NCBI GenBank assembly: GCA_016125095.1
Contig: WGMK01000007.1
Coordinates: forward strand, 265,605 to 329,604
Length of the DNA: 64,000 bases
Direction of reading: 5' to 3'
From: Candidatus Hydrogenedens sp.
Lineage (GTDB): Bacteria > Hydrogenedentota > Hydrogenedentia > Hydrogenedentales > JAEUWI01
In this document: piece by piece, positions 40,283-55,302 of the stretch
How the letters are laid out: each line of letters opens with the position of its first letter
How positions within the stretch are numbered: the stretch's first letter is position 1
Translations under genes and position numbers: made by a program
The notes under the pieces: model-generated
What the model was told of the DNA's origin: nothing
Seen by the model: only the letters and a program-made list of their open reading frames with translations
The model's database searches: none

Positions 40283-41890
40283 CTAGGGACGGTGGAGTTG
40301 CGTCCCCAGTTCTTCCAGGCGCCTGCGTGGTAATTCGACCGTGGCGCGGGCGCCGCGCTCGGGGCAGTTTTCAATGGAGATTCTGCCGCCGTGACTCTCA
40401 ACGATCTTCTTGCAGCAGGCCAGGCCGAGTCCCGTGCCGCGCGAGCCCTTGGTCGTGAAAAACGCATCGAAAATATGGGGAAGATGCTCGTCGCCGATAC
40501 CGGCCCCGGAATCGGTGACTTCGACGACCACCGACTCGGGATGACCCACCGCCAGAATCTCGACCGTTCCGCCGCCGGTTTCGCATGCATCGAGCGCATT
40601 GGCGACCAGATTCAAGACCACCCGGTGCAATTCACGGCCATCGCCATCGAGCCGCGTGCTGCCCTCGTATCGGAAGCGCACCTCGACTGCATGCTTGGCG
40701 GCCTGTTGCGCTACGGTCTCTACGACATCGCTGCAGATCGCCGCGATATCGCAGGCCTCGCGGTGCCCTGAGCCCCCGCGGGAGTAGGTGAGCATGTTCA
40801 ACACCAAGGTCTCGATGCGATCAATCGAACGCTGAAGGATGGGCCACCCGACCTGCAGCTGTTCCCACCGCTGGGATTGAACGCCCTGGCTGATTAAATC
40901 CGAACTGGCCCGGATTCCCGTGAGCATGTTCTTGATGCAATGCCCCAGTCCGGCCGTTGCCTCCCCGATGGCCGCGAGTCGCTCGGATTGCACGATCTGG
41001 TGGTGCAGGGTGGCATTCTCCACCGCAACACCCGCGATCCGGCCGATGGCGCTGAGCAGTTCGAGCGACTTTCCCTGGAACGGCCGCACCTGCCGGCCGG
41101 AATCGACGTAGATCACCCCGACGACGGACTCGCGTCCCAGCAGGGGGGCGCACATGGCGGAGTGGATTTCGTGGTCGGCAATGCTCGCCGAGGTGTCGAA
41201 GCGGCTGTCCTGTACGGCGTCAGCCACGAGAATCGCCTCGCGAGACCGCACCACCTTATCCACCAGCGTCTGGCTGATGGGGGGGCCGCTTTCGTCCGGC
41301 TGGCGGCTTAGCGAGGCCCGCAACTGCGCGGGCTCGCCCACGCTTTCGACGGTCAAGATAAAGCCGCGCTGCACGGGCAGGCTTTCGAAGACCAGTCCGA
41401 GCAGTTCCCGCAGCAATTCGTCCAAGTCGAAGATCTCGCCCAGCAACATCGATGCATGGAACAACGTCGCCAGGGGAGTGCCGACGGTATCTCGCAGGAG
41501 CGACTGTTGGAACATCTCGCTCTTGGCCATGCTCACGACAGACTGGGCGTAGGGTTCCGCACTGGCGGCGATCTCGAATTCCTGGTTACCGACGCGAAGC
41601 ACGTCTCCCGGATGCAGCTCGGCGAATGGTGTCGTCTTGCTGTTCACCATGATGCCGTTGCGGGAGCCGAGATCCTTAACCGACAAACGCCCATTTTCGA
41701 AATAGATCTGCGCGTGTTTCCGGCTCACGGACTGGTCCTGGGCGAGCGGAATACCGCACTCGTCCGCACGCCCGATGATCAGTCCGTTCTCCGGCACGGC
41801 GGTACGGCGCGGTTCCGCTCCGCTCCTCTTCCAGAGCAACTCGTAAGTGCTATCGCCAGCCATCCCTCTGCGCTCCAACGATTCAGCCAA
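40283..41890 (-). CDS. FHA-GAF-histidine kinase (sensor kinase with N-terminal forkhead-associated domain)
   Basis: FHA domain (GRADECGIPLAQDQSVSRKHAQIYFENGRLSVKDLGSRNGIMVN). GAF region. HisKA H-box (LGHCIKNMLTGI). HATPase_c (VVLNLVANALDA...DSGAGIGDE...GTGLGL). Confidence 0.75.
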   Translation of the reverse strand: MAESLERRGMAGDSTYELLWKRSGAEPRRTAVPENGLIIGRADECGIPLAQDQSVSRKHAQIYFENGRLSVKDLGSRNGIMVNSKTTPFAELHPGDVLRVGNQEFEIAASAEPYAQSVVSMAKSEMFQQSLLRDTVGTPLATLFHASMLLGEIFDLDELLRELLGLVFESLPVQRGFILTVESVGEPAQLRASLSRQPDESGPPISQTLVDKVVRSREAILVADAVQDSRFDTSASIADHEIHSAMCAPLLGRESVVGVIYVDSGRQVRPFQGKSLELLSAIGRIAGVAVENATLHHQIVQSERLAAIGEATAGLGHCIKNMLTGIRASSDLISQGVQSQRWEQLQVGWPILQRSIDRIETLVLNMLTYSRGGSGHREACDIAAICSDVVETVAQQAAKHAVEVRFRYEGSTRLDGDGRELHRVVLNLVANALDACETGGGTVEILAVGHPESVVVEVTDSGAGIGDEHLPHIFDAFFTTKGSRGTGLGLACCKKIVESHGGRISIENCPERGARATVELPRRRLEELGTQLHRP

Positions 41891-42014
41891 GTTGCGAATT
41901 GCTGATCGTTATAGGGGGATCGATGGTCGATTTACAAGCAATCCCGAATTTCTTACTTTGGGGTTGTACCATTGGAGGTTCTTTTCGACGGCCGGGCGGG
42001 CGGAACGTAACTTC

Positions 42015-42043
42015 TTGAACGCCAGAAATACTGCTGCTATATT
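42015..42043 (+). promoter_or_regulatory. Putative sigma70-type promoter for mrfA-like gene
   Basis: TTGAAC (42015-42020), 17-nt spacer, TATATT (42038-42043). RBS aaggag at 42051-42056, then GTG at 42063. Confidence 0.4.
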
Positions 42044-42062
42044 CAGTGGTAAGGAGCGCCGC

Positions 42063-44357
42063 GTGAACGTAGCCCAAACCATCGACCGCCTCAAGGGCGA
42101 TGCGGATTTCTGCCGCAGCCTGACCGCGTGGAAAACCGTGCCGCCACGTCCCGCGCGCTTCGGCGGATTTCCGGAGGGCCTCGACCCGCGGCTCGTGGCG
42201 GGCTATCAGAAGCGCGGCATCTACGACCTGTACACGCACCAGAGCCAGGCGGTGCAGGAAGCGCTGGCCGGCAACAACGTCTGCGTGGTTACCCCGACGG
42301 CCTCGGGCAAAACGCTCTGCTACAACATCCCGGTGCTGCAGCGGATCCTCGAGAATCCCAAGGCGCGGGCGCTCTACATCTTTCCCACCAAGGCGCTTTC
42401 GCAGGATCAGGTCTTCGAGCTCAAGGGCACCATTGACGATCTGGAGGTGAAGATTGGCACCTTCACCTTCGATGGCGATACCCCGGCCTCGGCGCGCAAG
42501 GCGGTGCGGAGCGCCGGGCACGTGGTGGTGACGAATCCGGACATGCTGCACAGCGGCATCCTGCCGCACCACACCATCTGGATCCGCCTGTTCGAGAACC
42601 TCGAGTACGTGGTCATCGACGAGGTGCACCACTACCGCGGGGTGTTCGGCAGCCACCTGGCGAACGTGCTCCGGCGCCTCAAGCGCATCTGCGCGTTCTA
42701 CGGTTCGAATCCGCAGTTCATCTGCTGCAGCGCCACGATTGCGAATCCGAAGGAATTGGCGGAGCGGATCATCGAAGCACCGGTATCGCTGGTGGACGAC
42801 AACGGCGCCCCGGCGGGCGAGAAGCATTTCCTGTTCTACAACCCGCCCGTGGTAAATGCGGAACTCGGCATCCGGAAATCCTCGGTGCATGAGGCAAGCC
42901 GTATTGCGCAGCAGCTGCTGATGAAGGAAATCCAGTCCATCGTCTTTGCGCGCAGCCGCCTGCGGGTCGAGGTGCTGACGACCTACCTGAAAGAGGCCGT
43001 GCGCAAGATGGGCAAGCCCGACGCGCTGGTGCAGGGCTATCGCGGCGGCTATCTGCCCACCGAGCGGCGCGCCATCGAGCAGGGCCTGCGCGAGGGCAAG
43101 ATCATGACGGTGGTCAGCACCAATGCGCTGGAGCTCGGCATCGACATCGGCGCGCTGGACGTGTGCATCATGACCGGATACGCAGGCAGCGTGGCCAGCA
43201 CCTGGCAGCAGGCCGGGCGCGCGGGACGCCGCAACAACGTGAGCCTCGTGGTGCTGGTCGCCACGAGCGCGCCGCTGGATCAGTACATCATCCAGCACCC
43301 GGAATACTTCTTCGAGCAGTCGCCGGAGAGCGGCACCATCGATCCGGACAACCTGATCATCCTGACGAGCCACCTGAAGTGCGCAAGCTTCGAACTGCCG
43401 TTCATCGAGGGCGAGGGCTTCGGCATCGACGCCCATTCAACCGAGCAGGTGCTGGATTACCTGGCCGAAAACCGCGTGCTGAGGAAGGTGCGCGACAAGT
43501 GGCACTGGAGTGCCGACACCTATCCCGCCGAGGACGTGAGCCTGCGGACCGCCGCGCCGGGGAATGTGGTGATTCTCGACACCAGCGACGACGGGCGCGT
43601 GATCGGCGAGGTCGATTATTTCGCGGCACATGTCGAGGTCTATGAAAACGCCATCTACATGCACCAGAGCCGGCAATACACCATCGACAAGCTGGACCTG
43701 AAAGATCGTAAGGCCTACGCGCGTCCGGTGGAGACGGACTACTACACCGACGCCGAACTGAAGGTGGACCTGCGGATTATCGATGCGCTGGAGGACATGG
43801 AGATCGGGCAGGCGCGGAAATGCTGCGGGGAACTCAGCGTCACCTGGCTCGCGACCATCTACAAGAAGATCAAGTTCGGTACGCACGAGAACGTAGGCTG
43901 GGGCGAAATCCATCTACCTGAGCAGAACATGCACACGATGGGCTATTGGATTGAATACCCCGACGAGGCGGAATCCCTGTTCGAGATGGAGCGCGAGGAA
44001 CTGGGCGAAGCGCTCAACGGCCTGGCCAACACGCTCCGGCAGGTGGCCCCCGTGCGCGTGATGTGCGACCTCACCGATATCCGCGCGACGGCCATGCTAC
44101 GCTCGCCCGTGTCGGAGCGTCCCTCGGTCTTCCTATACGAAACCTATCCCGGCGGCGTGGGGCTGAGCGAAAAGTTGTACGCGCACCATCAGGTGCTGCT
44201 CGAGTCCGCCATCAGCCTGATTACCGATTGCGGCTGCCGCGAGGGCTGCCCGAGCTGCGTGGGCACACCGCTAGAGACCGGACCGATGGGCAAGCAGGGG
44301 GCCGTGGCGCTGGCCCGCTTCGCGCTGGGACAGCCGCTGGCCGCGGCGGCGGAGTAG
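42063..44357 (+). CDS. mrfA: MrfA/YprA-like DEAD/DEAH-box helicase with C-terminal DUF1998 (4-Cys MZB) domain
   Basis: Walker A VVTPTASGKTLCY, DEVH box (VVIDEVHHYRG), motif VI QQAGRAGRR, and a C-terminal DCGCREGCPSCVG cysteine cluster typical of DUF1998. About 764 aa from GTG 42063; the ORF-track start at 41847 would overlap the divergent gene. Confidence 0.75.
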   Translation: MNVAQTIDRLKGDADFCRSLTAWKTVPPRPARFGGFPEGLDPRLVAGYQKRGIYDLYTHQSQAVQEALAGNNVCVVTPTASGKTLCYNIPVLQRILENPKARALYIFPTKALSQDQVFELKGTIDDLEVKIGTFTFDGDTPASARKAVRSAGHVVVTNPDMLHSGILPHHTIWIRLFENLEYVVIDEVHHYRGVFGSHLANVLRRLKRICAFYGSNPQFICCSATIANPKELAERIIEAPVSLVDDNGAPAGEKHFLFYNPPVVNAELGIRKSSVHEASRIAQQLLMKEIQSIVFARSRLRVEVLTTYLKEAVRKMGKPDALVQGYRGGYLPTERRAIEQGLREGKIMTVVSTNALELGIDIGALDVCIMTGYAGSVASTWQQAGRAGRRNNVSLVVLVATSAPLDQYIIQHPEYFFEQSPESGTIDPDNLIILTSHLKCASFELPFIEGEGFGIDAHSTEQVLDYLAENRVLRKVRDKWHWSADTYPAEDVSLRTAAPGNVVILDTSDDGRVIGEVDYFAAHVEVYENAIYMHQSRQYTIDKLDLKDRKAYARPVETDYYTDAELKVDLRIIDALEDMEIGQARKCCGELSVTWLATIYKKIKFGTHENVGWGEIHLPEQNMHTMGYWIEYPDEAESLFEMEREELGEALNGLANTLRQVAPVRVMCDLTDIRATAMLRSPVSERPSVFLYETYPGGVGLSEKLYAHHQVLLESAISLITDCGCREGCPSCVGTPLETGPMGKQGAVALARFALGQPLAAAAE

Positions 44358-44364
44358 TCCCCCG

Positions 44365-45663
44365 ATGGACGACGTGCGCGCCAAGCTGGACGCCCTGCTG
44401 AAAAGCCGGAACCTGATGACCGGCCGGCAATACGAGGAACAGCACCGCGAGGAATCCGAGCAGCGGCAATCGGGCGCTTTTGATCTGCCGCAGGTGGTGC
44501 CGGGCGAAGACGTGGGGGAGGACCCCGCGTTCTATCTGGTCCGCACCGAGTATCCGCTCGACCACCTGCACGGCCAGCTGCCGCTGGGATCGGCGCTGAC
44601 CGCCTCGGGCGAGCACATCGCTTTTTCCGCGCAGGACGAAGAGCTGATTGACTTCGACCCGGCGCGCACGGCCTTCGTCGATACCGAGACCATCGGCCTC
44701 GCGGGCGGCGCCGGCACGGTCGCCTTTCTGGTGGGCGTGGGTTATTTCACGGAGCATGCCTTCCGCCTCGACCAGTGTTTCATGCGCGACTACGACGAGG
44801 AGGAGCCGATGCTGGCGTTTCTCGCCGAGCGCTTTGAGGGCATGGAAACCGTCGTGGGCTACAACAGCAAAAGCTTCGACCTGCCGCTGCTGCGCACGCG
44901 CTTCATCCAGAACCGCATACCCTTCCGCGCCGAGGCCTGCGCGCACTACGATCTGGTGCATGCCGCGCGCCGGTTCTACAAGCGGCGGCTGGCCGATTGC
45001 AGCCTGGGCAACATCGAGCGCGAAGTGCTCGGCATCCGCCGCGAGGGCGACGTGCCCAGCTATCTGATACCGCAACTCTGGTTCGACTACCTCCGCACGC
45101 GCGACGCCCGCCCGCTCAAGGGCGTGTTCTACCACCACCAGACCGACATCCTCTCGCTGGTCACGCTTACGGCGTGGTTGTCGGAATGCCTGCAGCGCGG
45201 CGGCACCGAGGGCTTCGAGCATGCTGAGGACAAGTTGTCCCTCGTGCGCATCCACTTCCGGCAGAAGAACTACGAAGCGGTCGCCGACCTGGGTAAGCGC
45301 TTTCTCGAGGCGGACGGCGCCGACCAGGACACCGAGCCCGAGCGCTCGCTGCGGCTGGAATGCCTTGAGATGCTCGGCTTCGCCTACAAACGGCTCTCTC
45401 GGTTCGAGGACATGCGGGATTCGTGGGCCTGGCTGCTGGCCGAATCGCCCGCGCATCTCTCGGCCCGGCTCGAACTCTCCAAGCACTACGAACACCGCGA
45501 GCGCGACTACGGCCGCGCCCTCGCCCTATGCGACGAAGCCCTGGAGAATCCCAACCGTTTCGGCGCCGCGGTCGCCTCTGGAGAACTCCGCGCCCGCCGC
45601 GATCGCATCGCCAATAAAATGAACCGCGGCATGAAGGGGCACGCGGCCGACCTGCTGGAATAG
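44365..45663 (+). CDS. mrfB: MrfB/YprB-like RNase-H-fold (DnaQ-like) exonuclease with C-terminal TPR region
   Basis: Starts 8 nt after mrfA-like. N-terminal DTETIGL (DEDD motif I-like), GYNSKSFDLPLL, HHQTDILS (motif III-like), and C-terminal TPR-like helical repeats. 432 aa. Confidence 0.65.
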   Translation: MDDVRAKLDALLKSRNLMTGRQYEEQHREESEQRQSGAFDLPQVVPGEDVGEDPAFYLVRTEYPLDHLHGQLPLGSALTASGEHIAFSAQDEELIDFDPARTAFVDTETIGLAGGAGTVAFLVGVGYFTEHAFRLDQCFMRDYDEEEPMLAFLAERFEGMETVVGYNSKSFDLPLLRTRFIQNRIPFRAEACAHYDLVHAARRFYKRRLADCSLGNIEREVLGIRREGDVPSYLIPQLWFDYLRTRDARPLKGVFYHHQTDILSLVTLTAWLSECLQRGGTEGFEHAEDKLSLVRIHFRQKNYEAVADLGKRFLEADGADQDTEPERSLRLECLEMLGFAYKRLSRFEDMRDSWAWLLAESPAHLSARLELSKHYEHRERDYGRALALCDEALENPNRFGAAVASGELRARRDRIANKMNRGMKGHAADLLE

Positions 45664-45785: not shown

Positions 45786-46031
45786 ATGAAAGCGACTATT
45801 CTCGACATGCGCCGAAATCCGCAAAAAATCTTAGACGCAATCGCACGAAACGAGATCGTGACGCTTTCTTATCGCGGCAAAGAAATCGCTCGAATCGCGC
45901 CCATCGAGTCGGAGAAGCGCTGTAGCGCGTCTGAGCATCCCGCGTTCGGCATGTGGGCCGACCGCGAAGATATGGCTAATCCAACCGAGTACGTGAAGCA
46001 GTTACGAAGAGAACGCTATCGTGATCTTTGA
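45786..46031 (+). CDS. Phd/YefM-like type II antitoxin (VapB-position)
   Basis: 81 aa (MKATILDMRRNPQKILDAIARNEIVTLSYRGKEIARIAPIE), Phd/YefM fold signature. Overlaps the PIN gene by 11 nt. Low local GC. Confidence 0.7.
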   Translation: MKATILDMRRNPQKILDAIARNEIVTLSYRGKEIARIAPIESEKRCSASEHPAFGMWADREDMANPTEYVKQLRRERYRDL

Positions 46032-46401
46032 CACGGATGTCGTCATCTTCGCTTTGCGGGGCAATAGACGCGCCGCCGAATTGATCGACCGCGATGAACT
46101 GCCCGTCATATCGGTCGTAAGCTACTTGGAACTGGCACGTGGAGCACGTGATAAAGCCGAGCTTCGAGACGTTGGAAGATTCCTGAAGCATGTCGGGCTT
46201 CACACCTTGCCCCTCTCAGAGAACATAGGATTTCAAGCCCGTATCTACATTGAGGAATACGGATTGAAGAGCGGGCTGGGAGTCGCCGATTCCCTCATCG
46301 CTGCGACAGCGGCAGACGCTCAATTGACGCTTTGCTCGGGAAATGCCAAACACTTTCGCACCATCTCCGATCTCGATTTACGCGTGTTCCGAGGCGCGTG
46401 A
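46021..46401 (+). CDS. vapC: PIN-domain ribonuclease toxin (VapC family)
   Basis: 126 aa with the N-terminal MIFDTDVVI acidic motif and conserved D/E positions (ADSLIAATA, LCSGNAKHF). Confidence 0.8.
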   Translation: MIFDTDVVIFALRGNRRAAELIDRDELPVISVVSYLELARGARDKAELRDVGRFLKHVGLHTLPLSENIGFQARIYIEEYGLKSGLGVADSLIAATAADAQLTLCSGNAKHFRTISDLDLRVFRGA

Positions 46402-47143: not shown

Positions 47144-47285
47144 ATACCAGCCTGGGCCAACGGCCCAGGTATAAGGCATTCCCAAAGAATGAGGGCTGAT
47201 GGCCTGATCTATGAAATGGCGCGCGCCTTCAGCGCTTCGACCTTCTGTTGCGCCATGAACCTGGGCCGATGGCCCAGGCTGGTAT
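47144..47285. mobile_element. MITE/REP-like structured element: two near-identical hairpins with complementary flanks (26-nt terminal inverted repeats)
   Basis: ATACCAGCCTGGGCCAACGGCCCAGG (47144-47169) versus CCTGGGCCGATGGCCCAGGCTGGTAT (47260-47285). Each contains a self-complementary cctgggcc-N4-ggcccagg hairpin. The outer flanks ATACCAG / CTGGTAT are complementary, giving a ~15-bp long-range stem. No ORF inside. Confidence 0.5.
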
Positions 47286-48357: not shown

Positions 48358-49551
48358 CTACCGTCCCCCGATACCTTCCGTGCGTACCGCCACGGGTTGA
48401 ATCGCGGGCAATGCGTTCGAGGGCTGGTCGAGGTAGAAGAGCGCGACCGCGCTGACGTCGTCGCGGCGGTACATGTTGGTCCAGCCGTCGGGCACGCTAG
48501 GATCGTTTACTTTCAGGCCCTGCTCCAGCAGCGGCACGAAGGCCCCCGGACGCTGCACGCTGACCGGTTCTACTTCGACACCTTCGTCCACCAGCCGCTC
48601 CACGGTCTTCTTGTCTGCGCCGCCCATCTGCTGAATCGTCACGCGCGCTTCCTGGTGAAAATACACGGGGTCCGGCACATGGTGGCGGTAGAAGGTCCAG
48701 CGGCGTTTCTGGTTCTCGATGATCAGCGAGCCCTGGTAGCGGTTCGCGAATTCGCCCTGGCCGTAGGCCGTGCCCACGTAGTCCTCCGTGCCCGTGCCGA
48801 TAATCGTCGGCCAAGCCGTATCGCCGTCCAGGTACATCTTCACTTCGCCCTCGCCCCACCAGCCGACGTTATCCGCCGCGCCCAAGATGCCGATATGCGC
48901 CCCCAGGAATCGGCCGCCGCCGGTCACCTGCGGCAATATCTCGAAGTCCTTGCCCAGCGCCGTGCGCGGGTCGCGGTGCCAAAACGCGTGGAAATACAAC
49001 ACGTTGTCCGGGTGCTCCTCGCCGACGGTAAGATTGATGTCGTAAAACAACTGGTCCAGCGGCTCGGCGGCATCGTTGGTAAAGGTGATCTTCGCGTGCG
49101 TACGGAAGGGCATGGGCACCACGCAATTGAAGGAACGCCCCTCAGGACTCGAGAACAGCTCGCTTTCGAAGGGTTTCATTTCGCCCAGAATATGCCCGAA
49201 GAAATCCGGAAACGGCGCCTCGACGGCGGGCTTTTCCGCGCCGTCCCAATACATGCGGATGACATACGACCGCAGGGCCTGTGCGCTGCGGTTCGACAAC
49301 GTGAACCACATCCGCCGCACCACGCCGCTGCCGTCCATGTCCAGCAGCACCTTCTCCTCGCCCGGCGCGACCGAACCGAAGGCCGCGCCCTTCGCGCCCT
49401 TGTTGGTCTGTCCCCCGGCGCCCGGGGCGCCCGTCGGGTTCTCAAAACTTACCCAGCGCGATTCCACGCCCGCAGGCAAGGTGTACAGTTCCTCGGCCGC
49501 AGCAACCGTTGCCGCCACGCAAAAAACGAAAGTAGCAATGAGGAATTTCAC
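48358..49551 (-). CDS. DUF2961 / GH172-like beta-jellyroll protein (putative glycoside hydrolase), secreted
   Basis: GTG start at 49551 with RBS gggagg 8 nt upstream, giving signal peptide VKFLIATFVFCVAATVAAAEE. Family-like motifs WFTLSNRS, RMYWDG, GTGTEDY and FYRHH. The ORF-track N-terminal extension (MRGCVHHRGTEG...) is likely non-coding. Confidence 0.6.
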   Translation of the reverse strand: MKFLIATFVFCVAATVAAAEELYTLPAGVESRWVSFENPTGAPGAGGQTNKGAKGAAFGSVAPGEEKVLLDMDGSGVVRRMWFTLSNRSAQALRSYVIRMYWDGAEKPAVEAPFPDFFGHILGEMKPFESELFSSPEGRSFNCVVPMPFRTHAKITFTNDAAEPLDQLFYDINLTVGEEHPDNVLYFHAFWHRDPRTALGKDFEILPQVTGGGRFLGAHIGILGAADNVGWWGEGEVKMYLDGDTAWPTIIGTGTEDYVGTAYGQGEFANRYQGSLIIENQKRRWTFYRHHVPDPVYFHQEARVTIQQMGGADKKTVERLVDEGVEVEPVSVQRPGAFVPLLEQGLKVNDPSVPDGWTNMYRRDDVSAVALFYLDQPSNALPAIQPVAVRTEGIGGR

Positions 49552-49703
49552 GAGTTGGCCCTCCCTAAGGTAACTTCGAGCGAGTATGCGGCGAGTTCCC
49601 TTCCCGATGCCAGCCAGATTTTTTCTTCGTTCCCATCTTCTCCTTCCTTCCCCCTTCCTCTCTGTGCCCTCTGTGCCTCTGTGGTGAACGCATCCGCGCA
49701 AAA

Positions 49704-52322
49704 TTGGCAGCCAGCCGCCGGGTGTACTACGATACCGCTCCCTTCAGGAGTACTCCCCGCGTGCCCAGAAAAGACATTGGCGAAGACATTACCCGGCGCT
49801 TTACGCCCGAGGCTGCCCGCGCGCTGCAGGAAGCCATCGACGATGCGGGCGGCCACGAGGTGTTTTTCGCCGGTTCGCTCAACGCCTCGGGCATTGTCGA
49901 ATCCGTCCGCGTCTGCGCCCGGGGCCACGCCAGCGCCGTGCCCGCGCTGTTCGAATCGCTACAAGTGCGAGACGTCGTCATCCACAATCACCCGAGCGGA
50001 CGGCTGGATCCCAGCGACGCCGACCTGCAGCTCGCGTCGATGTACAGCACCCACGGCCATGGGGTCTACATCATCGACAATCCGGCCGAGCGCGTGTATG
50101 TGGTGGTCGAACCCTTCCTCCAGAGCGACCAGCAGCCGCTGCACCCCGAAAAGGTGGCGGGAGAGATCGAGCCGGGAGGACGCTTGTCCGCGGGACTAAA
50201 GGGCTACGAATACCGCGAACAGCAGCGCGATATGGCCGTCGCCGTCATCGACGCGCTGAATCACGACCGCATCACGGTGGTCGAAGCGCCCACGGGCGTG
50301 GGGAAGACCGTGGCTTACCTGCTGCCGGCCATCCACTGGGCCGCGCAGAACAAAGAGCGCGTGGTGGTCTCCACCCGCACCATCAACCTGCAAGAGCAGA
50401 TCATCGAAAAGGATCTGCCCGCCCTCCAGCGCGCCCTCGGCACCGAACTGAGCGCCTGCCTGGTGAAGGGGCGCGGCAACTACCTATGCTGGCGCAAGCT
50501 AAACCGGGCCCTGGGCGAGGCCACCTTATTCGAGGGCGAGGAGCGGCGCGAGCAGCTGAACGAACTCGCCGCCTGGGCCGAGCGAACGCCCGACGGCAGC
50601 CGCTCCGACCTGCCCTTTGTGCCCGCGCGCGACCTGTGGAGCGAGGTCTGTTCCGAGGCGGACAGCTGCGGCTTTTCTCGATGCCCGGATAAGAAGCGCT
50701 GCTTCGTGACCAAGGCGCGGCGCGATATCGCCCGGGCCGATATCGTCGTGGTCAACCACCACCTGCTGTTTTCCGATATCGCCATCAAGCGCGAAACTGG
50801 CGACTTCTCGGCGCTGGCCCTGCTGCCCGCCTACAAGCGCCTAATTCTCGACGAGGCCCACAGCGTGGAAGACAGCGCCACGGAATACTTCGGGGTCTCG
50901 GCCACGCGGCTCGGGGCGCTCGCCACGCTGGGCCGGCTCTACCGCACCGAGCGGCAGCGGCAGCGCGGGCTGCTCCCGCTGTTCAAGGCCAAGCTGATGA
51001 AGGACTGCCACGACCTGCCCATCACGGCCTTCGAGCAGATGCAGGCGGCCATGGACACGCGCATCGAGCCCGCCGTGGCCGACGCGCGCCGCCAGTTAGA
51101 CGACTACTTCGACGCCATCCGCTCGCTTGGGGCCGAACGCTGCGAGGACATCGGTCGCGACATCAAGTGGCGACTGACCGAAGCCGCGCTCGCCGAGCAG
51201 ACCGTGCGCATTTTCCATCAGGAGGTCGTCCATCCGCTGGTCGAGTGCCTCCGCACCCTGTGTACGCTGCTGTTGTCCCTGGCCGAGCGGGCCGGCCGCG
51301 AAGTGAAAAGCGCCCGGGATCCCGAATCGCCGATTGTGGGCGAACTGGCCGAACTGCAGGCCTATGCGCTGCGCCTCGAACGCCTGGCCGAGACCCTGGC
51401 GGAAATCACCTCGCCCCAGTTGCGTGAGAATACCGTCCGCTGGGTCGAATTCGACGCGACCGATTCCCGGCTGGTGCGCGTGGCACGGTGTCCGCTCGAG
51501 GTGGGGGAGCCGCTCGCCGAGGGCGTCTACGAACACCTGCGTTCGGTCGTGCTCACCTCGGCGACGCTCACGGTCAATCAGCGCTTCGACTACCTGTTCT
51601 CGCGGCTGGGCATGGACCGTCTGCCCTCGGAGCGGGTTGTAAGCCGCCGTCTGACCTCGCCGTTCGACTACGCGAACCAGGCGATGCTGGCGATACCCAA
51701 CGACCTGCCCGAGCCGACCTCGCCCGATTTCGGCGAGGCCTCGCATGAGGCGCTGCTTGAATTGCTCAACGCCACCCACGGCGGGGCATTCGTGCTGTTC
51801 ACTTCCTATGCCGCGCTCGACCGCGCCCATCGCGCCCTCATCGGCCCGCTGAACGACGCCGGGCTGACCGTGCACAAGCAGGGCGCGCTGCCGCGGAATG
51901 TGCTGTTGGAGCGCTTCCGGGCCGACCACTGCGGCGTGCTCTTCGCCACAGACAGCTTCTGGGAAGGGGTCGACGTTGCCGGTCAGGCGCTGCGGTGTGT
52001 AGTATTGGTGCGGCTGCCCTTCCGCGTGCCGTCCGAGCCCGTGCTCGAGGCGCGGTCCGAGGCCATCGAGGCCCGCGGAGGCAATGCCTTCATGGATTAC
52101 GCCGTGCCCCAGGCCGCCATCAAGTTCCGGCAGGGCTTCGGCAGGCTCATCCGCCGCAAGTCCGACATCGGCGCCGTCGTGGTGTTGGATCGCCGGATTG
52201 TGACCAAATACTATGGCCGGGTATTTCTAAAATCTCTGCCTGAACTACAGCCGGTGCAAGCCAGCATGCGCGAAATCGCCGAACAGGTGCGCGCGTTTCT
52301 GGCACAACCCAGAGGGGAGTAA
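49704..52322 (+). CDS. dinG: Fusion protein: N-terminal RadC-like JAB/MPN (JAMM) domain + DinG/Rad3-family Fe-S ATP-dependent DNA helicase
   Basis: N-terminal (~150 aa) EVFFAGSLNASGIV...VVIHNHPSGRLDPSDADLQL...HGHGVYIIDNPAERVYVV carries the RadC signature HNHPSG(x3)PSxxD (about 49983-50000). Helicase: Walker A VVEAPTGVGKT, Fe-S cysteines CLVKGRGNYLC...CSEADSCGFSRC...C, DEAH box LILDEAHSVED, and a C-terminal Helicase_C_2 (FVLFTSY...QGFGRLIRR). Confidence 0.75.
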   Translation: MAASRRVYYDTAPFRSTPRVPRKDIGEDITRRFTPEAARALQEAIDDAGGHEVFFAGSLNASGIVESVRVCARGHASAVPALFESLQVRDVVIHNHPSGRLDPSDADLQLASMYSTHGHGVYIIDNPAERVYVVVEPFLQSDQQPLHPEKVAGEIEPGGRLSAGLKGYEYREQQRDMAVAVIDALNHDRITVVEAPTGVGKTVAYLLPAIHWAAQNKERVVVSTRTINLQEQIIEKDLPALQRALGTELSACLVKGRGNYLCWRKLNRALGEATLFEGEERREQLNELAAWAERTPDGSRSDLPFVPARDLWSEVCSEADSCGFSRCPDKKRCFVTKARRDIARADIVVVNHHLLFSDIAIKRETGDFSALALLPAYKRLILDEAHSVEDSATEYFGVSATRLGALATLGRLYRTERQRQRGLLPLFKAKLMKDCHDLPITAFEQMQAAMDTRIEPAVADARRQLDDYFDAIRSLGAERCEDIGRDIKWRLTEAALAEQTVRIFHQEVVHPLVECLRTLCTLLLSLAERAGREVKSARDPESPIVGELAELQAYALRLERLAETLAEITSPQLRENTVRWVEFDATDSRLVRVARCPLEVGEPLAEGVYEHLRSVVLTSATLTVNQRFDYLFSRLGMDRLPSERVVSRRLTSPFDYANQAMLAIPNDLPEPTSPDFGEASHEALLELLNATHGGAFVLFTSYAALDRAHRALIGPLNDAGLTVHKQGALPRNVLLERFRADHCGVLFATDSFWEGVDVAGQALRCVVLVRLPFRVPSEPVLEARSEAIEARGGNAFMDYAVPQAAIKFRQGFGRLIRRKSDIGAVVVLDRRIVTKYYGRVFLKSLPELQPVQASMREIAEQVRAFLAQPRGE

Positions 52323-52326
52323 GCGC

Positions 52327-53703
52327 ATGGCCTCCGAAAGCAACCCGCTCGACATCCGTATCGACATCGCCCGCGCCAAGGCAGCCGCCGTCGGCAGCGA
52401 ACACGGCGTCACCCCTGCGGAGTATGCCGAGATCGAACCCCGCGTGCTCGAGATTCACCGGATCCTGGAGCAAGAACGGCGCGACGGGAAGTACGGCTTC
52501 TACGACCTCTACAAGGATACCGACGCGCTAGAGGCGGTCAAGGCCGCAGCCACAAAGTTCGCCGCCTTTGAGTACGAAAACCTCGTGGTGCTGGGCATCG
52601 GCGGTTCGGCGCTGGGCATCACGGCGCTGAACACCGCGCTCAACCCGCCCTTCTACAACATGATGACCAAGGCCGCCCGCAAGCGCCGGCCGCGCCTGTT
52701 CGTGATGGACAACATCGACCCGCTTACCTTCAAGCAGATGATGCGGATGTGCCCGCCGAAGAAGTCGCTGTATGTGTCGATCTCCAAATCCGGCGGCACG
52801 GCCGAGACGACCTCGCAAACGATGATCGTGCTCGACGCGCTGGAGCAGAAGCTCGGCAAGGACGGGGTCAAGGACCACCTCGTGGTCATCACCAGCCCAC
52901 GCGTGCCCGGCGCTCCCAAGAGCCTGCTGCACCCGGTGGCCGACGAATACGGCCTGACCTCGCTCGACATTCCGCTGAACGTGGGGGGGCGCTTCTCGGT
53001 CTTTACGCCGGTGGGCCTGTTTCCGGCGGCGCTGCTGGGCATGGACCTGGATGCCATAATGGCGGGCTGCGCCGCGATGGACGCGCGCACTTCGGCCGCC
53101 AGCCTGCACGACAACCCGGCCTACCTGCGGGCCGCCACGCAATACCTGCTCGATACCCGCAAGGGCAAGGTCATGTCCGTCATGATGCCCTACGCCGATG
53201 CCCTCCGCGATGTGGCCGACTGGTACCGGCAGCTGTGGGCGGAAAGCCTGGGCAAGCGCCTCAGCCTGGACGGGGCCGAAGTTTTCACCGGACAGACGCC
53301 CGTGAAGGCGCTCGGTGCGACCGACCAGCATTCGCAGGTGCAGCTTTATGCTGAGGGCCCGAATGACAAAGTATTTAACGTCATCGAGGCCGCCAGCTTC
53401 GGAAGCACCCTGAAGATTCCCGCGAACCTCACCAGCATTTCCGAGTTGGAATACCTTCGTGGCAAGAGCATGAACAAGCTCATGTCGGCGGAACTGCGCG
53501 GCACCATCGATGCGCTGAAAGATGCCTCCCGCCCCGTAATCAAAATCTCGCTGCCGCGCGTGAACGCGCACACGGTGTCCCAGCTGCTCTACATGCTCGA
53601 AGTCGAGACCGCGATGGCCGGCCGCCTGTATAACGTGGACGCCTTCAATCAACCGGGCGTCGAGGCGGGCAAGATCATCGCGCGCAAACTGATGGGCGCG
53701 TAG
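52327..53703 (+). CDS. pgi: Glucose-6-phosphate isomerase (short PGI/SIS-domain family)
   Basis: SIS-domain motifs VLGIGGSALG and ISKSGGTAET. 458 aa. Starts 5 nt after the dinG-like stop. Confidence 0.7.
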   Translation: MASESNPLDIRIDIARAKAAAVGSEHGVTPAEYAEIEPRVLEIHRILEQERRDGKYGFYDLYKDTDALEAVKAAATKFAAFEYENLVVLGIGGSALGITALNTALNPPFYNMMTKAARKRRPRLFVMDNIDPLTFKQMMRMCPPKKSLYVSISKSGGTAETTSQTMIVLDALEQKLGKDGVKDHLVVITSPRVPGAPKSLLHPVADEYGLTSLDIPLNVGGRFSVFTPVGLFPAALLGMDLDAIMAGCAAMDARTSAASLHDNPAYLRAATQYLLDTRKGKVMSVMMPYADALRDVADWYRQLWAESLGKRLSLDGAEVFTGQTPVKALGATDQHSQVQLYAEGPNDKVFNVIEAASFGSTLKIPANLTSISELEYLRGKSMNKLMSAELRGTIDALKDASRPVIKISLPRVNAHTVSQLLYMLEVETAMAGRLYNVDAFNQPGVEAGKIIARKLMGA

Positions 53704-53712
53704 ACCGCCGCA

Positions 53713-55302
53713 ATGAAAGAACTTCGCATTCCCGAATACGGCGTCGGAGCCGATGTGCCCGCCCTGCGCCGCGGACGCTGGTCGTTCCGGTTCGGCGTGG
53801 CCGCCGTCGTGCTGCTCACGTTCTCGCTCTGGCTTTCAGAACGCTACCTGCGCTTCGACCTGAACGAAACGCAGTACATCATGGCGCTGACCATGCACCC
53901 CGACAGCGCCCGGCCCGTGCTGCGCAACGTCCTCAAGCGCGAAACCGACTCCGGGCAGCCCATCGTTGCACGGCATGCCGAGGCGCTGGCCGATGTCGAG
54001 GAACCCGATATTCTGCTCGCCCGCTATGCCGAGGCCTACCAGCTCGACCCGGGCAACTGGAGCCTTGTGCTGAACTACGGCACGCGGCTGTGGGGAGCGG
54101 GCAAGTTCGCCGAGGCCCGGGAACGCTTCCGCGAAGCCTCCGTGCATGCGCCCGACAACGCCCTGCCGCGCTACCTGGAGGCGGCTGCGCTCGTCCTGTC
54201 GCGGCCCGACAACCCCGACTATGCCGAGGCCATGGCGCTCATCGAACGTGCCAATGTGTCCGGCTATCCCGCGCGCTTTCCCACGCCGCTCTGGCATGTC
54301 TCGATTCCAGCCAGCGGCAACTGGTACGCCCAGAAGCAGCGCCTGATCATCGACCGCTGCTGCGCGCCGCTCTACCGGTTCAATGCGGCCATGGTGGCCG
54401 CGGCACGCGCGTCGGCCGACGACCAGACCCGGGTACAATGGGAAACCTGGTTCGAAACCATGGAACGCATGGGGCAAAACCTGGTGGGCGACGTGGATAC
54501 CCCGGCCGAATCCCTCGGGGCGCCCCAGGCGGTGGCGGGGTTGAACATTCAGATCGACGCCATTGATTCTCGCCTGTGGCTCGCGGACGCTGATGCGGCC
54601 GAGCCCGACCCCGCGTTGAGTGAGCGCAAGGGACGACTTTTGGCGGCCAAGGACAAGCTCGCGGCCTTCGAAGACGCCCGGCAGAATATCATTGGCGCGC
54701 ACCAGCAAGTGATTCTCGCGCCAGTCATTTTCGCTCTCACGACCTTTCTCCTTTTTCTCGCCGTTTGGACGCTTGCCTTGCTCATCGACCGCATCTTCTG
54801 GAAAGGCAGTCTCGGAGAGAACGCTCAGCATGCGCTTTGGGGCAATCTCTGGTTCGGCGGCGCGGGCGCCGGATTCCTGGCGCTGTATATCGCGTTCGCG
54901 TTCCTGCAGCACGTTCACCCCATCGCCACCCAGATGACCATGATGGCCTCGCTGATCTGGATGGCGCTCGTGGCGGTGCTGCTCGCGGGCGCACCAGTGT
55001 ATCCTTACATCTTGCTACCCTCGGCGCGCTCGAGGATTGATGCGCTGGCAATAGCGGAGGACGACAAGGACACCGCCCATTTCGTACGGCGCGCCCGGCT
55101 CGATGCCTACCTGTCCCTCATGCGCCGATACCTCGGGATTGCGCTGGGGGTGTTTCTGATCGCGTCGTGCACCTGGTTCCTCGGGGTGCGCATCGTGACC
55201 GGGCTCTATCCGACGCAGGTCGAACTGATGGCGTCCGGTCTGCGCCCCGAGGAAATTGCACTTATCACGGAAATCATTCGGCTTACGCCGGGGTTGTCTT
55301 GA
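53713..55302 (+). CDS. Hypothetical membrane protein with TPR-like periplasmic region and C-terminal multi-TM domain
   Basis: N-terminal TM (FGVAAVVLLTFSLWL), a TPR-like helical middle section, and 5-6 C-terminal TM helices. Confidence 0.5.
   Translation: MKELRIPEYGVGADVPALRRGRWSFRFGVAAVVLLTFSLWLSERYLRFDLNETQYIMALTMHPDSARPVLRNVLKRETDSGQPIVARHAEALADVEEPDILLARYAEAYQLDPGNWSLVLNYGTRLWGAGKFAEARERFREASVHAPDNALPRYLEAAALVLSRPDNPDYAEAMALIERANVSGYPARFPTPLWHVSIPASGNWYAQKQRLIIDRCCAPLYRFNAAMVAAARASADDQTRVQWETWFETMERMGQNLVGDVDTPAESLGAPQAVAGLNIQIDAIDSRLWLADADAAEPDPALSERKGRLLAAKDKLAAFEDARQNIIGAHQQVILAPVIFALTTFLLFLAVWTLALLIDRIFWKGSLGENAQHALWGNLWFGGAGAGFLALYIAFAFLQHVHPIATQMTMMASLIWMALVAVLLAGAPVYPYILLPSARSRIDALAIAEDDKDTAHFVRRARLDAYLSLMRRYLGIALGVFLIASCTWFLGVRIVTGLYPTQVELMASGLRPEEIALITEIIRLTPGLS

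Follow-up and report, generated by a model that had tools for sequence, protein, structure and literature searches.

Introduction

The fusion of a RadC-type JAB domain to a DinG helicase was described by Iyer et al. in 2011 (PMC3239186), who viewed it as a non-homologous displacement of a 3'-5' exonuclease by the JAB domain and proposed on this basis that the JAB domain might be a nuclease. A review from 2025 (PMC11981726) named the architecture "RadC-like DinG", one of ten DinG subgroups, and reported that the lineages that carry it have no HolC homologue. Candidatus Hydrogenedentota is named in neither paper, nor in Table S1 of the review, and we found no experimental work in the literature on any member of this family. 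RadC-like DinG is the sole DinG subgroup with a catalytic N-terminal fusion that is still awaiting characterisation; the studies of ExoDinG date from 2012 and 2025, that of EndoDinG from July 2026.

The relatives of this family differ mainly in what they carry in front of the helicase. E. coli YoaA lacks an N-terminal domain and relies on HolC/chi; in the model proposed for it, the helicase exposes the 3' nascent strand to separate nucleases. In pExoDinG, the N-terminal slot holds a non-catalytic pseudo-nuclease module. [quoted passage not shown] EndoDinG has likewise been shown biochemically to coordinate an N-terminal nuclease with 5'-3' translocation (PMC13650095, July 2026).

The DinG fusion was in 2011, and is today, the best architectural handle on RadC. 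To our knowledge, few bacterial proteins whose biochemical activity has yet to be demonstrated are as widespread as RadC, and we know of no JAB/MPN enzyme with a proven ability to cleave nucleic acid. In this study, we have analysed one such fusion in the window, i.e., the whole 64,000-nt stretch of Candidatus Hydrogenedens sp. DNA from which all positions below are counted.

Results

The fusion is encoded by one uninterrupted open reading frame at 49704..52322 on the forward strand (872 aa in the list of open reading frames), at the coordinates given by an earlier sequence-only reading of this DNA (Table 1). That reading began the protein at TTG 49704, but GTG 49761 is probably the true start codon: it is the NCBI-annotated start of an 853-aa protein (P0001) that is 100% identical to the window protein, and it is preceded by a Shine-Dalgarno-like AGGAG. 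TTG 49704 itself coincides with the first base of a promoter-like element that is the sole sigma-70-like match in 49400-49900 (shuffle mean 0.1). Residues are numbered below either from TTG 49704 (ORF872) or from GTG 49761 (853-aa), E52 of the former being E33 of the latter.

Table 1. Positions in the window of the RadC-like DinG gene, its domains and motifs, and adjacent features.
Feature	Position	Strand	Remarks
Promoter-like TTGGCA-18 nt-TACGAT, divergent intergenic region	49704..49733	+	Consensus match only
AGGAG, Shine-Dalgarno-like	49746..49750	+	10 nt upstream of GTG 49761; direct sequence reading
Probable CDS of the RadC-like DinG protein	49761..52322	+	853 aa and TAA stop; homologue N-termini coincide
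RadC-type JAB/MPN domain	49800..50114	+	ORF872 residues 33-137; 853-aa residues 14-118
JAMM Glu, putative catalytic, E52 (ORF872) / E33 (853-aa)	49857..49859	+	Within GGHEVFF; start of strand beta-1
JAMM core HNHPSGRLDPSDAD	49983..50024	+	Residues 94-107; predicted zinc ligands H94, H96, D107, plus S104 (ORF872)
Conserved JAB-helicase linker	50115..50204	+	In frame, no stop, no frameshift
DinG/YoaA-like SF2 helicase core (motors 1 and 2, Fe-S, Arch)	50205..52301	+	NCBIfam and fold match
Walker A, APTGVGKT	50286..50309	+	Residues 195-202; invariant in 25-sequence Hydrogenedentota alignment
First Fe-S cysteine, C262 (ORF872) / C243 (853-aa)	50487..50489	+	Invariant 25/25
Fe-S cysteines C322-x4-C327-x5-C333, CGFSRCPDKKRC	50667..50702	+	Invariant in Hydrogenedentota alignment
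DEAH box (Walker B)	50850..50861	+	Residues 383-386; invariant in Hydrogenedentota alignment
Helicase_C_2, second motor domain	51753..52244	+	PF13307, residues 684-847, E = 4e-45
pgi (glucose-6-phosphate isomerase)	52327..53703	+	4 nt past helicase; Shine-Dalgarno inside helicase 3' end

The protein is almost certainly a full-length member of the RadC-like DinG family, judging from its sequence. As in the proteins of PMC3239186 and PMC11981726, a RadC domain (PF04002 at residues 40-116) and a YoaA-like helicase (residues ~160-866) with two motors, an Arch domain and a four-Cys Fe-S domain share a single chain in a continuous frame, and the E/H/H/D residues are in place, the glutamate at the start of beta-1, two histidines at a strand end and the aspartate at the N-terminus of a helix. 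The review's exemplar from D. soudanensis (A0A0M4DKS9), of which the first 399 aa were compared, aligns over 388 aa at 51% identity (E = 3e-125, 2 gaps), an alignment that takes in the JAB domain, the linker, the first motor and the Fe-S domain. The structural neighbours PfJAMM1 and Rpn11 are common to the window JAB and to Table S2 of the review, and the only difference we see is the host lineage, in which the gene belongs to a syntenic block containing pgi. The sequence-only reading had not recognised this fusion as a described family; both papers describe it, so the architecture itself is already known, and with its description in 2011 and its naming in 2025 the family is a known one, to which the window gene adds an ordinary core-genome member.

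For the N-terminal part, the RadC/JAB domain that had been proposed from the sequence is present. PF04002 scores 23.0 bits on the whole protein, a small margin over its gathering cutoff of 22.1 bits, and 27.9-28.4 bits when only the N-terminal segment is searched; it is matched by all 12 of 12 diverse family members (best E = 4.2e-10), with only marginal matches to Prok-JAB. The AF2 model and its structural neighbours confirm a JAB fold, and the positions of the JAMM residues in the secondary structure agree with this model. The JAMM constellation, E-x41-HxH-x7-S-xx-D, is complete, including the upstream glutamate on which the earlier reading had hinged, and its core is the stretch that matches the RadC structure 2QLC. 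Among diverse representatives with 37-61% identity to the query, E33 is invariant in 150/150 (and in 25/25 Hydrogenedentota homologues) and H75, H77, S85 and D88 (853-aa numbering) in 151/151. By these alignments the conservation of the five positions is far beyond chance, and invariance at such identities points to selection on catalysis, beyond the fold alone. The stand-alone RadC (UPF0758; HhH and JAB; 2QLC) is very diverged from the window JAB, and the window protein has no HhH. Canonical RadC was rejected as an identity: PRK00024 and TIGR00608 give 20-23 bits against a cutoff of 180 and 15-18 against 134, with only a ~22-residue HNHPSG core aligning.

The DinG/XPD-type helicase was borne out as well, with Walker A, the four-Cys cluster, the DEAH box and Helicase_C_2 all located within an XPD-like fold, as in the XPD/DinG Fe-S superfamily; the C322-x4-C327-x5-C333 motif is also found in members from other phyla. 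The profile searches that the sequence-only reading had suggested succeeded for RadC and Helicase_C_2 and failed for DEAD_2 (12.3 bits against a cutoff of 21), so the helicase assignment rests on the matches to Pfam DEAD (residues 180-257), Helicase_C_2 and NCBIfam models together with the fold match. The top NCBIfam models are E. coli YoaA (589 bits), which is the closest to the core, the Firmicute DnaQ-DinG PRK08074 (482) and E. coli DinG (429). The full-length AF2 model (pLDDT 83.2) matches the E. coli DinG-ssDNA structure 6FWR (E = 2.7e-38), and additionally S. aureus ExoDinG, XPD and CasDinG. From the invariant motifs and the DinG-ssDNA fold match, we infer an active helicase with a four-Cys Fe-S module.

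Comparison with the other DinG types places the JAB domain precisely. Residues 160-866 of the ORF align with positions 248-929 of PRK08074, the portion past the exonuclease domain of this model, so that the JAB domain does occupy the slot of the DnaQ-like exonuclease of Firmicute DinG, as had been proposed. ExoDinG of S. aureus and B. subtilis shares with the window protein a DinG core with a catalytic domain in this slot (Foldseek matches 9II8 and 8ZEF), but there the domain is RNase H-like DEDDh, a fold unrelated to the deaminase-like JAB, and Bacillales ExoDinG lacks the Fe-S cysteines, whereas the window protein retains all four. EndoDinG of F. magna (9KQH) has the same slot and an intact Fe-S helicase core; its PD-(D/E)XK domain, again of an unrelated fold, is a demonstrated nuclease, whereas the activity of the window JAB is putative. 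YoaA resembles RadC-like DinG in overall architecture and in its C-terminal alpha-7 helix (PMC11981726), a difference from the E. coli protein being the JAB domain. Three of these identities were rejected for the window protein: ExoDinG (PRK08074, 482 bits against a cutoff of 789, the match having no exonuclease domain), YoaA (NF053712, 589 against 680, only the core being YoaA-like) and CasDinG/Csf4 (100 against 400, with intact Fe-S cysteines and no adjoining cas genes).

Discussion

Based on our results, we propose, with a probability of about 0.7, that the window protein couples a catalytically active JAB domain to an active helicase in DNA repair. The helicase would translocate 5'-3' on ssDNA, like E. 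coli DinG and YoaA, S. aureus ExoDinG and F. magna EndoDinG, and hand a DNA-borne substrate to the N-terminal hydrolase, and the coupled enzyme could repair crosslinked or end-blocked DNA at stalled forks. RadC-like DinG would thus act in cis, the lineages concerned being reported to have no HolC, the partner of YoaA (PMC11981726). ExoDinG, with its two coordinated activities, serves as our working model for this mode of action. For the chemistry of the JAB domain, we prefer phosphodiester cleavage of a displaced or 3'-ended strand, i.e., the nuclease hypothesis of Iyer and Aravind, although with somewhat less than even confidence. The analogy is that the catalytic occupants of this slot in ExoDinG (DEDDh) and EndoDinG (PD-(D/E)XK) are nucleases, which the JAB domain may parallel. 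The sequence-only reading had seen in the fusion an architectural support for a nuclease; the argument is legitimate but 15 years old (PMC3239186), and the idea has to be credited to earlier publications. If it is true, RadC-like DinG would be the first JAB nuclease.

Several properties of the JAB domain fit less well with a nuclease. Among its structural neighbours, which include PfJAMM1, Rpn11, Rpn8, CSN6, Prp8 and eIF3f/h, there is no nuclease fold: all of them are (iso)peptidases or MPN domains that act as scaffolds. The review likewise reported no nuclease fold (PMC11981726). The domain is acidic across the family (mean net charge -6.9, 99% of members negative) with a single conserved basic residue, R54, which is weak evidence against autonomous binding of the DNA backbone and unlike a DNA-gripping module. 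The peptidase-type catalytic set (E, HxH, S and D) is kept whole and is 100% conserved, serine included. A possible, if less likely, alternative is therefore that the JAB domain is a DNA-tethered JAMM peptidase that hydrolyses amide or isopeptide bonds. The 5'-3' helicase would meet, and perhaps unfold, a DNA-bound protein or peptide and the JAB domain would trim this adduct, whether a DNA-protein crosslink, the remnant of a crosslink, or a protein that blocks an end. The protein would then be a single-chain bacterial counterpart of FANCJ plus SPRTN, acting in cis: FANCJ, an Fe-S helicase of this very family, unfolds DNA-protein crosslinks before they are proteolysed by SPRTN (Yaneva 2023, cited in PMC10175854). 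Combinations of ssDNA-binding and metalloprotease modules are known, for example the Spartan-like ArdC (PMC7213743), and RadC itself has been found fused to ArdC (PMC3239186). The formaldehyde sensitivity of the ExoDinG mutant also suggests that the N-terminal slot serves crosslink repair.

Other observations weigh against a peptidase. Helicase-peptidase fusions are rare whereas helicase-nuclease fusions are common, and both characterised catalytic occupants of the slot are nucleases. No ubiquitin-like or other conserved protein partner adjoins the gene in 80 loci. We found no literature proposing or testing the idea, text matches for RadC with DNA-protein crosslinks being false positives. Moreover, superfamilies of metal hydrolases span amidases and nucleases with the same ligands, as in the metallo-beta-lactamase fold and, within the amidohydrolase fold, TatD; conservation of the JAMM ligands therefore leaves the substrate unfixed. 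[quoted passage not shown]

An improbable variant is that the JAB domain works as an amidohydrolase on something other than protein, carried by DNA or a nucleotide, for example a base adduct or modification linked through an amide, which would reflect a nucleotide-directed ancestry of the deaminase-like fold. Iyer et al. indeed argued that the ancestral deaminase-like fold bound nucleotides and placed RadC-type JABs in nucleic-acid or nucleotide contexts (PMC3239186). This idea is wholly speculative, and the conserved neighbours of the gene point to no specific substrate. Deaminases carry the motif H/C-x-E ... PCxxC, and the motif seen here is of the JAMM and not of the deaminase type. It is rather more improbable that the JAB domain is non-catalytic and serves in regulation, DNA binding or protein docking. 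There are precedents, since the slot tolerates an inactive module in pExoDinG, there are fusobacterial versions of RadC-DinG without zinc ligands (PMC3239186) and many eukaryotic MPN domains are scaffolds (Rpn8, CSN6, Prp8 and eIF3f/h are among our matches). Nevertheless, the five catalytic positions are invariant in the 150-151 representatives and in the window protein, and absolute conservation of this kind favours a catalytic over a scaffold role.

The genomic context gives little reason to see the gene as the cargo of an accessory or defence island, for example as a CasDinG-like helicase of type IV CRISPR or another anti-phage system, which we regard as highly unlikely. The sequence-only reading described the stretch as accessory-looking, and a VapBC-like TA pair and an inverted repeat do lie 2.4-3.9 kb upstream of the CDS start; the PADLOC typeIV_DinG model PDLC01439 also scores 433 bits. 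This match, however, spans only the generic helicase core (residues 144-841), Csf4 stays far below its NCBIfam cutoff (see above), there are no cas/csf genes beside the helicase gene, and the Fe-S cysteines are intact, unlike in CasDinG. The GC content of the gene is 61-68%, against 56-68% around it. Adjacent genes encode a DUF2961 protein, glucose-6-phosphate isomerase (pgi) and a TPR membrane protein, and the block formed by the helicase, pgi and TPR protein genes is syntenic across Hydrogenedentota (protein identity 55-60%), with synteny kept downstream of the helicase gene. This phylum-wide synteny indicates a core, vertically inherited gene, and the accessory label therefore does not extend to it. 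What the window adds is not a new architecture but a further phylum, Hydrogenedentota, in which the gene belongs to the core genome and keeps its synteny.

The window also adds quantitation: this JAB subtype occurs almost exclusively in DinG fusions. A search with the window JAB as the single query sequence gave only 585 clusters, in which the top matches long enough to judge are all DinG fusions, none being a canonical RadC; 120 of the top 150 JAB matches run straight into the helicase and the remaining 30 are fragments of at most 282 aa. Orthologous fusions, which the sequence-only reading had proposed to look for, are present, with the same collinear layout, in at least 587 species genomes spread over many phyla, with more than 100 clusters of ~850 aa from independent assemblies covering 91-98% of the ORF. 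Complete ORFs from Desulfuromonadales, Spirochaetota, Planctomycetota, KSB1 and Nitrospinota are 39-46% identical end to end; for Nitrospirota the alignment goes no further than query residue 786, and the ORF from Dadabacteria is fragmentary (319 aa). Across 50050-50300 the fusion frame alone is open and homologous, the other two being closed or non-homologous. With this open frame, the conserved linker and such collinearity, an assembly or frameshift artefact joining two genes has a negligible probability, and hundreds of collinear orthologues make a stop or frameshift at 50100-50200 very unlikely. The ways in which the earlier reading might have failed were thus not encountered: the N-terminus aligns to RadC/JAB, has its glutamate, and the fusion is no artefact.

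Finally, pgi begins 4 nt past the helicase gene, not 5 nt as had been counted, and the same 4-nt spacing recurs in locus L001. From this arrangement the two genes are probably co-transcribed. The linkage is confined to Hydrogenedentota-type loci, and pgi is a syntenic neighbour of the helicase gene and not a functional partner.

A described fusion family

The gene under study joins a RadC-type JAB/MPN domain to a DinG/YoaA-like Fe-S helicase. The sequence-only reading did not recognise this architecture as a described family; the fusion had in fact been published, with the same argument, by Iyer et al. in 2011 (PMC3239186), and a 2025 review (PMC11981726) names it 'RadC-like DinG'. Iyer et al. 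found that RadC-fused helicases are close kin of versions with a 3'-5' exonuclease fusion, and their case for a nuclease from the shared slot is exactly the one made in the sequence-only reading, whose interpretation is reasonable but already in print. Aligned with the D. soudanensis exemplar named in the review (A0A0M4DKS9), the window protein shows 51% identity across the first 388 residues (E = 3e-125), a span that crosses the JAB, the linker and the first motor and Fe-S domains, and it is an ordinary member of the known family. Its host phylum, Hydrogenedentota, is not listed by the two papers. Our literature search turned up no experiments on RadC-like DinG and no report of RadC nuclease activity.

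The gene and its fusion are genuine

As originally called, 49704-52322 (+) is a single uninterrupted ORF of 872 aa. Translation probably starts at GTG 49761, giving 853 aa (853-aa number + 19 = 872-aa number), because this is the NCBI start of a 100%-identical database protein and has AGGAG 10 nt upstream. The alternative start, TTG 49704, is disfavoured on the same grounds and because it coincides with the first base of TTGGCA-18-TACGAT, the sole match resembling a promoter between the two divergent genes.

An assembly or frameshift artefact around 50100-50200 had been named as a danger. The frame is continuous through this stretch, the other two being closed or non-homologous, and an artefact is ruled out by the hundreds of independent genomes that carry a collinear fusion. 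Over 100 protein clusters, each of about 850 aa and nearly all with the label Candidatus Hydrogenedentes/Hydrogenedentota, match 91-98% of the ORF at 54-87% identity. When the 151-aa N-terminal segment alone was searched against 1.84 billion cluster representatives, 585 clusters matched at E <= 1e-3, of which 411 reached E <= 1e-10. Among the 150 best matches of these 585 clusters, the JAB runs directly into a homologous helicase in 120, as scored with phmmer on the helicase segment, and the other 30 are fragments of at most 282 aa whose post-JAB sequence is too short to judge; this JAB subtype is thus essentially dedicated to DinG fusions. It also lies too far from stand-alone RadC to be connected with it by a single-sequence search.

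Relatives, sought as the sequence-only reading had proposed, were confirmed in at least 587 species genomes (587 of 600 stretches; N-terminal-only alignment, one genome per species). Hosts among the listed matches include Hydrogenedentota, Spirochaetota, Desulfuromonadales/Thermodesulfobacteriota, Planctomycetota, KSB1, Nitrospirota, Nitrospinota and Dadabacteria, among others. The window protein aligns with members of these phyla at 39-46% identity, end-to-end wherever the subject ORF is complete, with the exception of Nitrospirota, where the alignment ends at query residue 786.

Domains and conservation of the catalytic residues

All the motifs first recognised by eye (JAMM, Walker A, the four cysteines, DEAH) were located in the ORF, together with the upstream Glu of the zinc site. 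The HMM searches proposed alongside them matched RadC and Helicase_C_2, whereas DEAD_2 was found only below threshold in the Pfam scan of the ORF. Scanned alone, the N-terminal segment scored 27.9-28.4 bits against PF04002 (gathering cutoff 22.1). In NCBIfam, YoaA (589 bits) ranked over Firmicute DnaQ-DinG PRK08074 (482) and E. coli DinG (429), all three under their equivalog cutoffs. The PRK08074 alignment spans model positions 248-929, that is, everything C-terminal to the exonuclease domain of the model, and so places the JAB, as had been proposed, in the slot held by a DnaQ-like exonuclease in Firmicute DinG.

Features of the RadC-like DinG protein and its surroundings (window coordinates; residues numbered on the 872-aa ORF)
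Feature	Position	Strand	Details
Helicase + exonuclease-like pair	41847-45663	+	~4 kb upstream of RadC-like DinG gene
VapBC-like pair	45786-46401	+	81-aa Phd/YefM-like ORF overlapping 126-aa PIN-domain ORF
Inverted repeat	47144-47285		34-nt arms, 88% complementary, 74-nt separation
DUF2961 protein	48358-49701	-	E = 1.6e-66; divergent from helicase
529-aa protein	53713-55302	+	weak TPR matches, apparent transmembrane segments; no family assignment
RadC-like JAB (PF04002)	residues 40-116		Pfam, 23.0 bits whole protein; cutoff 22.1
Upstream Glu	E52		sequence motif
JAMM core	residues 94-107		sequence motif, HNHPSGRLDPSDAD
DEAD	residues 180-257		Pfam
Walker A	residues 195-202		sequence motif, APTGVGKT
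Fe-S cysteines	C262 + C322-x4-C327-x5-C333		sequence motif
DEAH	residues 383-386		sequence motif
Helicase_C_2	residues 684-847		Pfam, E = 4e-45

In an alignment of 25 Hydrogenedentota homologues, E33, H75, H77, S85 and D88 (853-aa numbering) are invariant, as are C243, C303, C308, C314, Walker A and DEAH. Across diverse representatives that share 37-61% identity with the query, the Glu, whose absence would have spoken against a JAB, is kept in 150/150 and the H, H, S and D in 151/151, with the canonical spacing H-x-H-x7-S-x2-D. JAMM, Walker A and DEAH (or DEGH) are retained in all cross-phylum members wherever the ORF reaches them. By these residues, the JAMM zinc site is intact and absolutely conserved, and the ATPase/Fe-S helicase core is likewise intact; the two are obligately fused. 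In one otherwise collinear planctomycete member (L051), the pattern C-x4-C-x4-6-C was unmatched, and its cysteines may be spaced differently or its Fe-S module may be degenerate; in Table S1 of the review (PMC11981726), the Kuenenia protein, also from a planctomycete, is entered as 4C.

For the model of the whole protein (pLDDT 83.2), the best fold match is E. coli DinG-ssDNA (6FWR, E = 2.7e-38), followed by S. aureus ExoDinG, XPD, CasDinG and F. magna EndoDinG. Searching the PDB with the JAB sequence gave RadC 2QLC alone (E = 0.004), tankyrase matches being discounted as His-tag noise.

Possible chemistry of the JAB domain

Two systems carry a nuclease next to this type of motor. S. aureus ExoDinG coordinates a 3'-5' exonuclease with a 5'-3' helicase, and its deletion causes sensitivity to mitomycin C and formaldehyde, resistance needing both activities (PMC12345164). 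F. magna EndoDinG has a PD-(D/E)XK nuclease in the same slot and a 5'-3' translocase (PMC13650095, July 2026). In the YoaA model, nucleases gain access to 3' nascent ends that the helicase lays bare. By analogy with the characterised DinG, YoaA, ExoDinG and EndoDinG, the helicase would move 5'-3' on DNA. The motor would bring a substrate carried on DNA to the N-terminal hydrolase. By comparison with ExoDinG and the YoaA model, the protein would probably serve in the repair of crosslinks or blocked ends.

We tentatively commit to a nuclease as the chemistry of the JAB, with a probability of about 0.4. Both characterised catalytic occupants of the N-terminal slot are nucleases, and helicase-nuclease fusions are common. 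Moreover, the same metal ligands can serve both amidase and nuclease chemistry across metal-hydrolase superfamilies such as the metallo-beta-lactamase and amidohydrolase/TatD folds. A DNA-tethered peptidase is somewhat less likely. In its favour, all JABs characterised so far are, to our knowledge, (iso)peptidases, and a fold search returned only (iso)peptidases or scaffold MPN domains as structural neighbours. The JAMM Ser is kept, and the domain is acidic (net charge -6.9 on average and negative in 99% of members, one conserved basic residue), a sequence-computed stand-in for electrostatics that is weak evidence only. DNA-coupled metalloproteases have precedents in ArdC/Spartan, and FANCJ unfolds DNA-protein crosslinks for SPRTN; a search of the literature for a link between RadC and DNA-protein crosslinks found none, the text matches being false positives such as 'Radchenko'. 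An amidohydrolase acting on another substrate is improbable, and a non-catalytic module, set against the conserved zinc site, more improbable still. The RadC-like DinG family is the best entry point to RadC function; the finding itself adds little.

Genomic context

The gene had been described as lying in an accessory-looking stretch. This holds for its variable upstream side, but the gene itself is core and vertically inherited and borders a syntenic block, as the block downstream is conserved across Hydrogenedentota. Upstream, the toxin-antitoxin islet was borne out by the VapBC-like pair (PIN 41 bits; Phd/YefM-like 17.9 bits, weak and under cutoff), and the inverted repeat is probably the reported MITE. 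A 313-aa ORF without annotatable match also lies upstream. The listed start of the DUF2961 ORF (TTG 49701) is probably too far upstream, since KFLIATFVFCVAATVAAA, a stretch resembling a signal peptide, starts about 50 codons into the ORF.

Still further upstream, an 836-aa helicase (DEAD, Helicase_C, WHD_HRQ1 and the MrfA Zn-binding domain, MZB; its PADLOC matches are generic) is followed after 8 nt by a 432-aa RNase_H_2 (PF13482, E = 3e-35) and TPR protein. They look like an MrfA/MrfB-type helicase and 3'-5' exonuclease pair (B. subtilis mitomycin repair), which would put two helicase/hydrolase repair modules within 10 kb. No second JAB/RadC gene was found in the window.

The downstream block (helicase, pgi, a ~530-aa TPR/membrane protein, then an ECF sigma factor) recurs in distant Hydrogenedentota genomes with proteins 55-60% identical. 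The helicase-pgi spacing, first given as 5 nt, measures 4 nt and is repeated in one of them. We surveyed 80 loci with flanks of ~4 kb upstream and 2 kb downstream: pgi lies 3' of the helicase in 19/80 and the ~530-aa gene likewise in 19/80, all Hydrogenedentota-type bar one pgi locus labelled 'uncultured bacterium'. In 19 Hydrogenedentota-type loci, a homologue of the 529-aa protein stands directly 3' of either pgi or the helicase; in relatives, an ECF sigma/anti-sigma pair comes next. The helicase-pgi junction is a recurrent insertion/deletion point: one Hydrogenedentota genome carries a ParE-toxin/antitoxin pair there (L004, 8607-9090), and another locus (L002) lacks pgi and keeps the ~530-aa gene.

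A functional link to pgi was rejected as lineage-specific synteny, since the helicase-pgi order is confined to Hydrogenedentota-type loci. No cross-phylum neighbour (ubiquitin-like protein, nuclease, HolC-like partner) was found in the 80 loci, so context gives no functional partner. Membership of a defence or CRISPR type IV system was likewise rejected, the PADLOC 'typeIV_DinG' match covering the generic helicase core only, with no cas genes nearby.

Several MAGs labelled 'uncultured Nitrospirales/Nitrospiraceae' (L015, L022-L025, L029, L036) share 52-57% identity with the window protein in the N-terminal domain, and most carry the Hydrogenedentota-specific pgi/530-aa synteny, which suggests that these bins are taxonomically mislabelled. 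A further database protein, P0097, is also labelled Nitrospiraceae.
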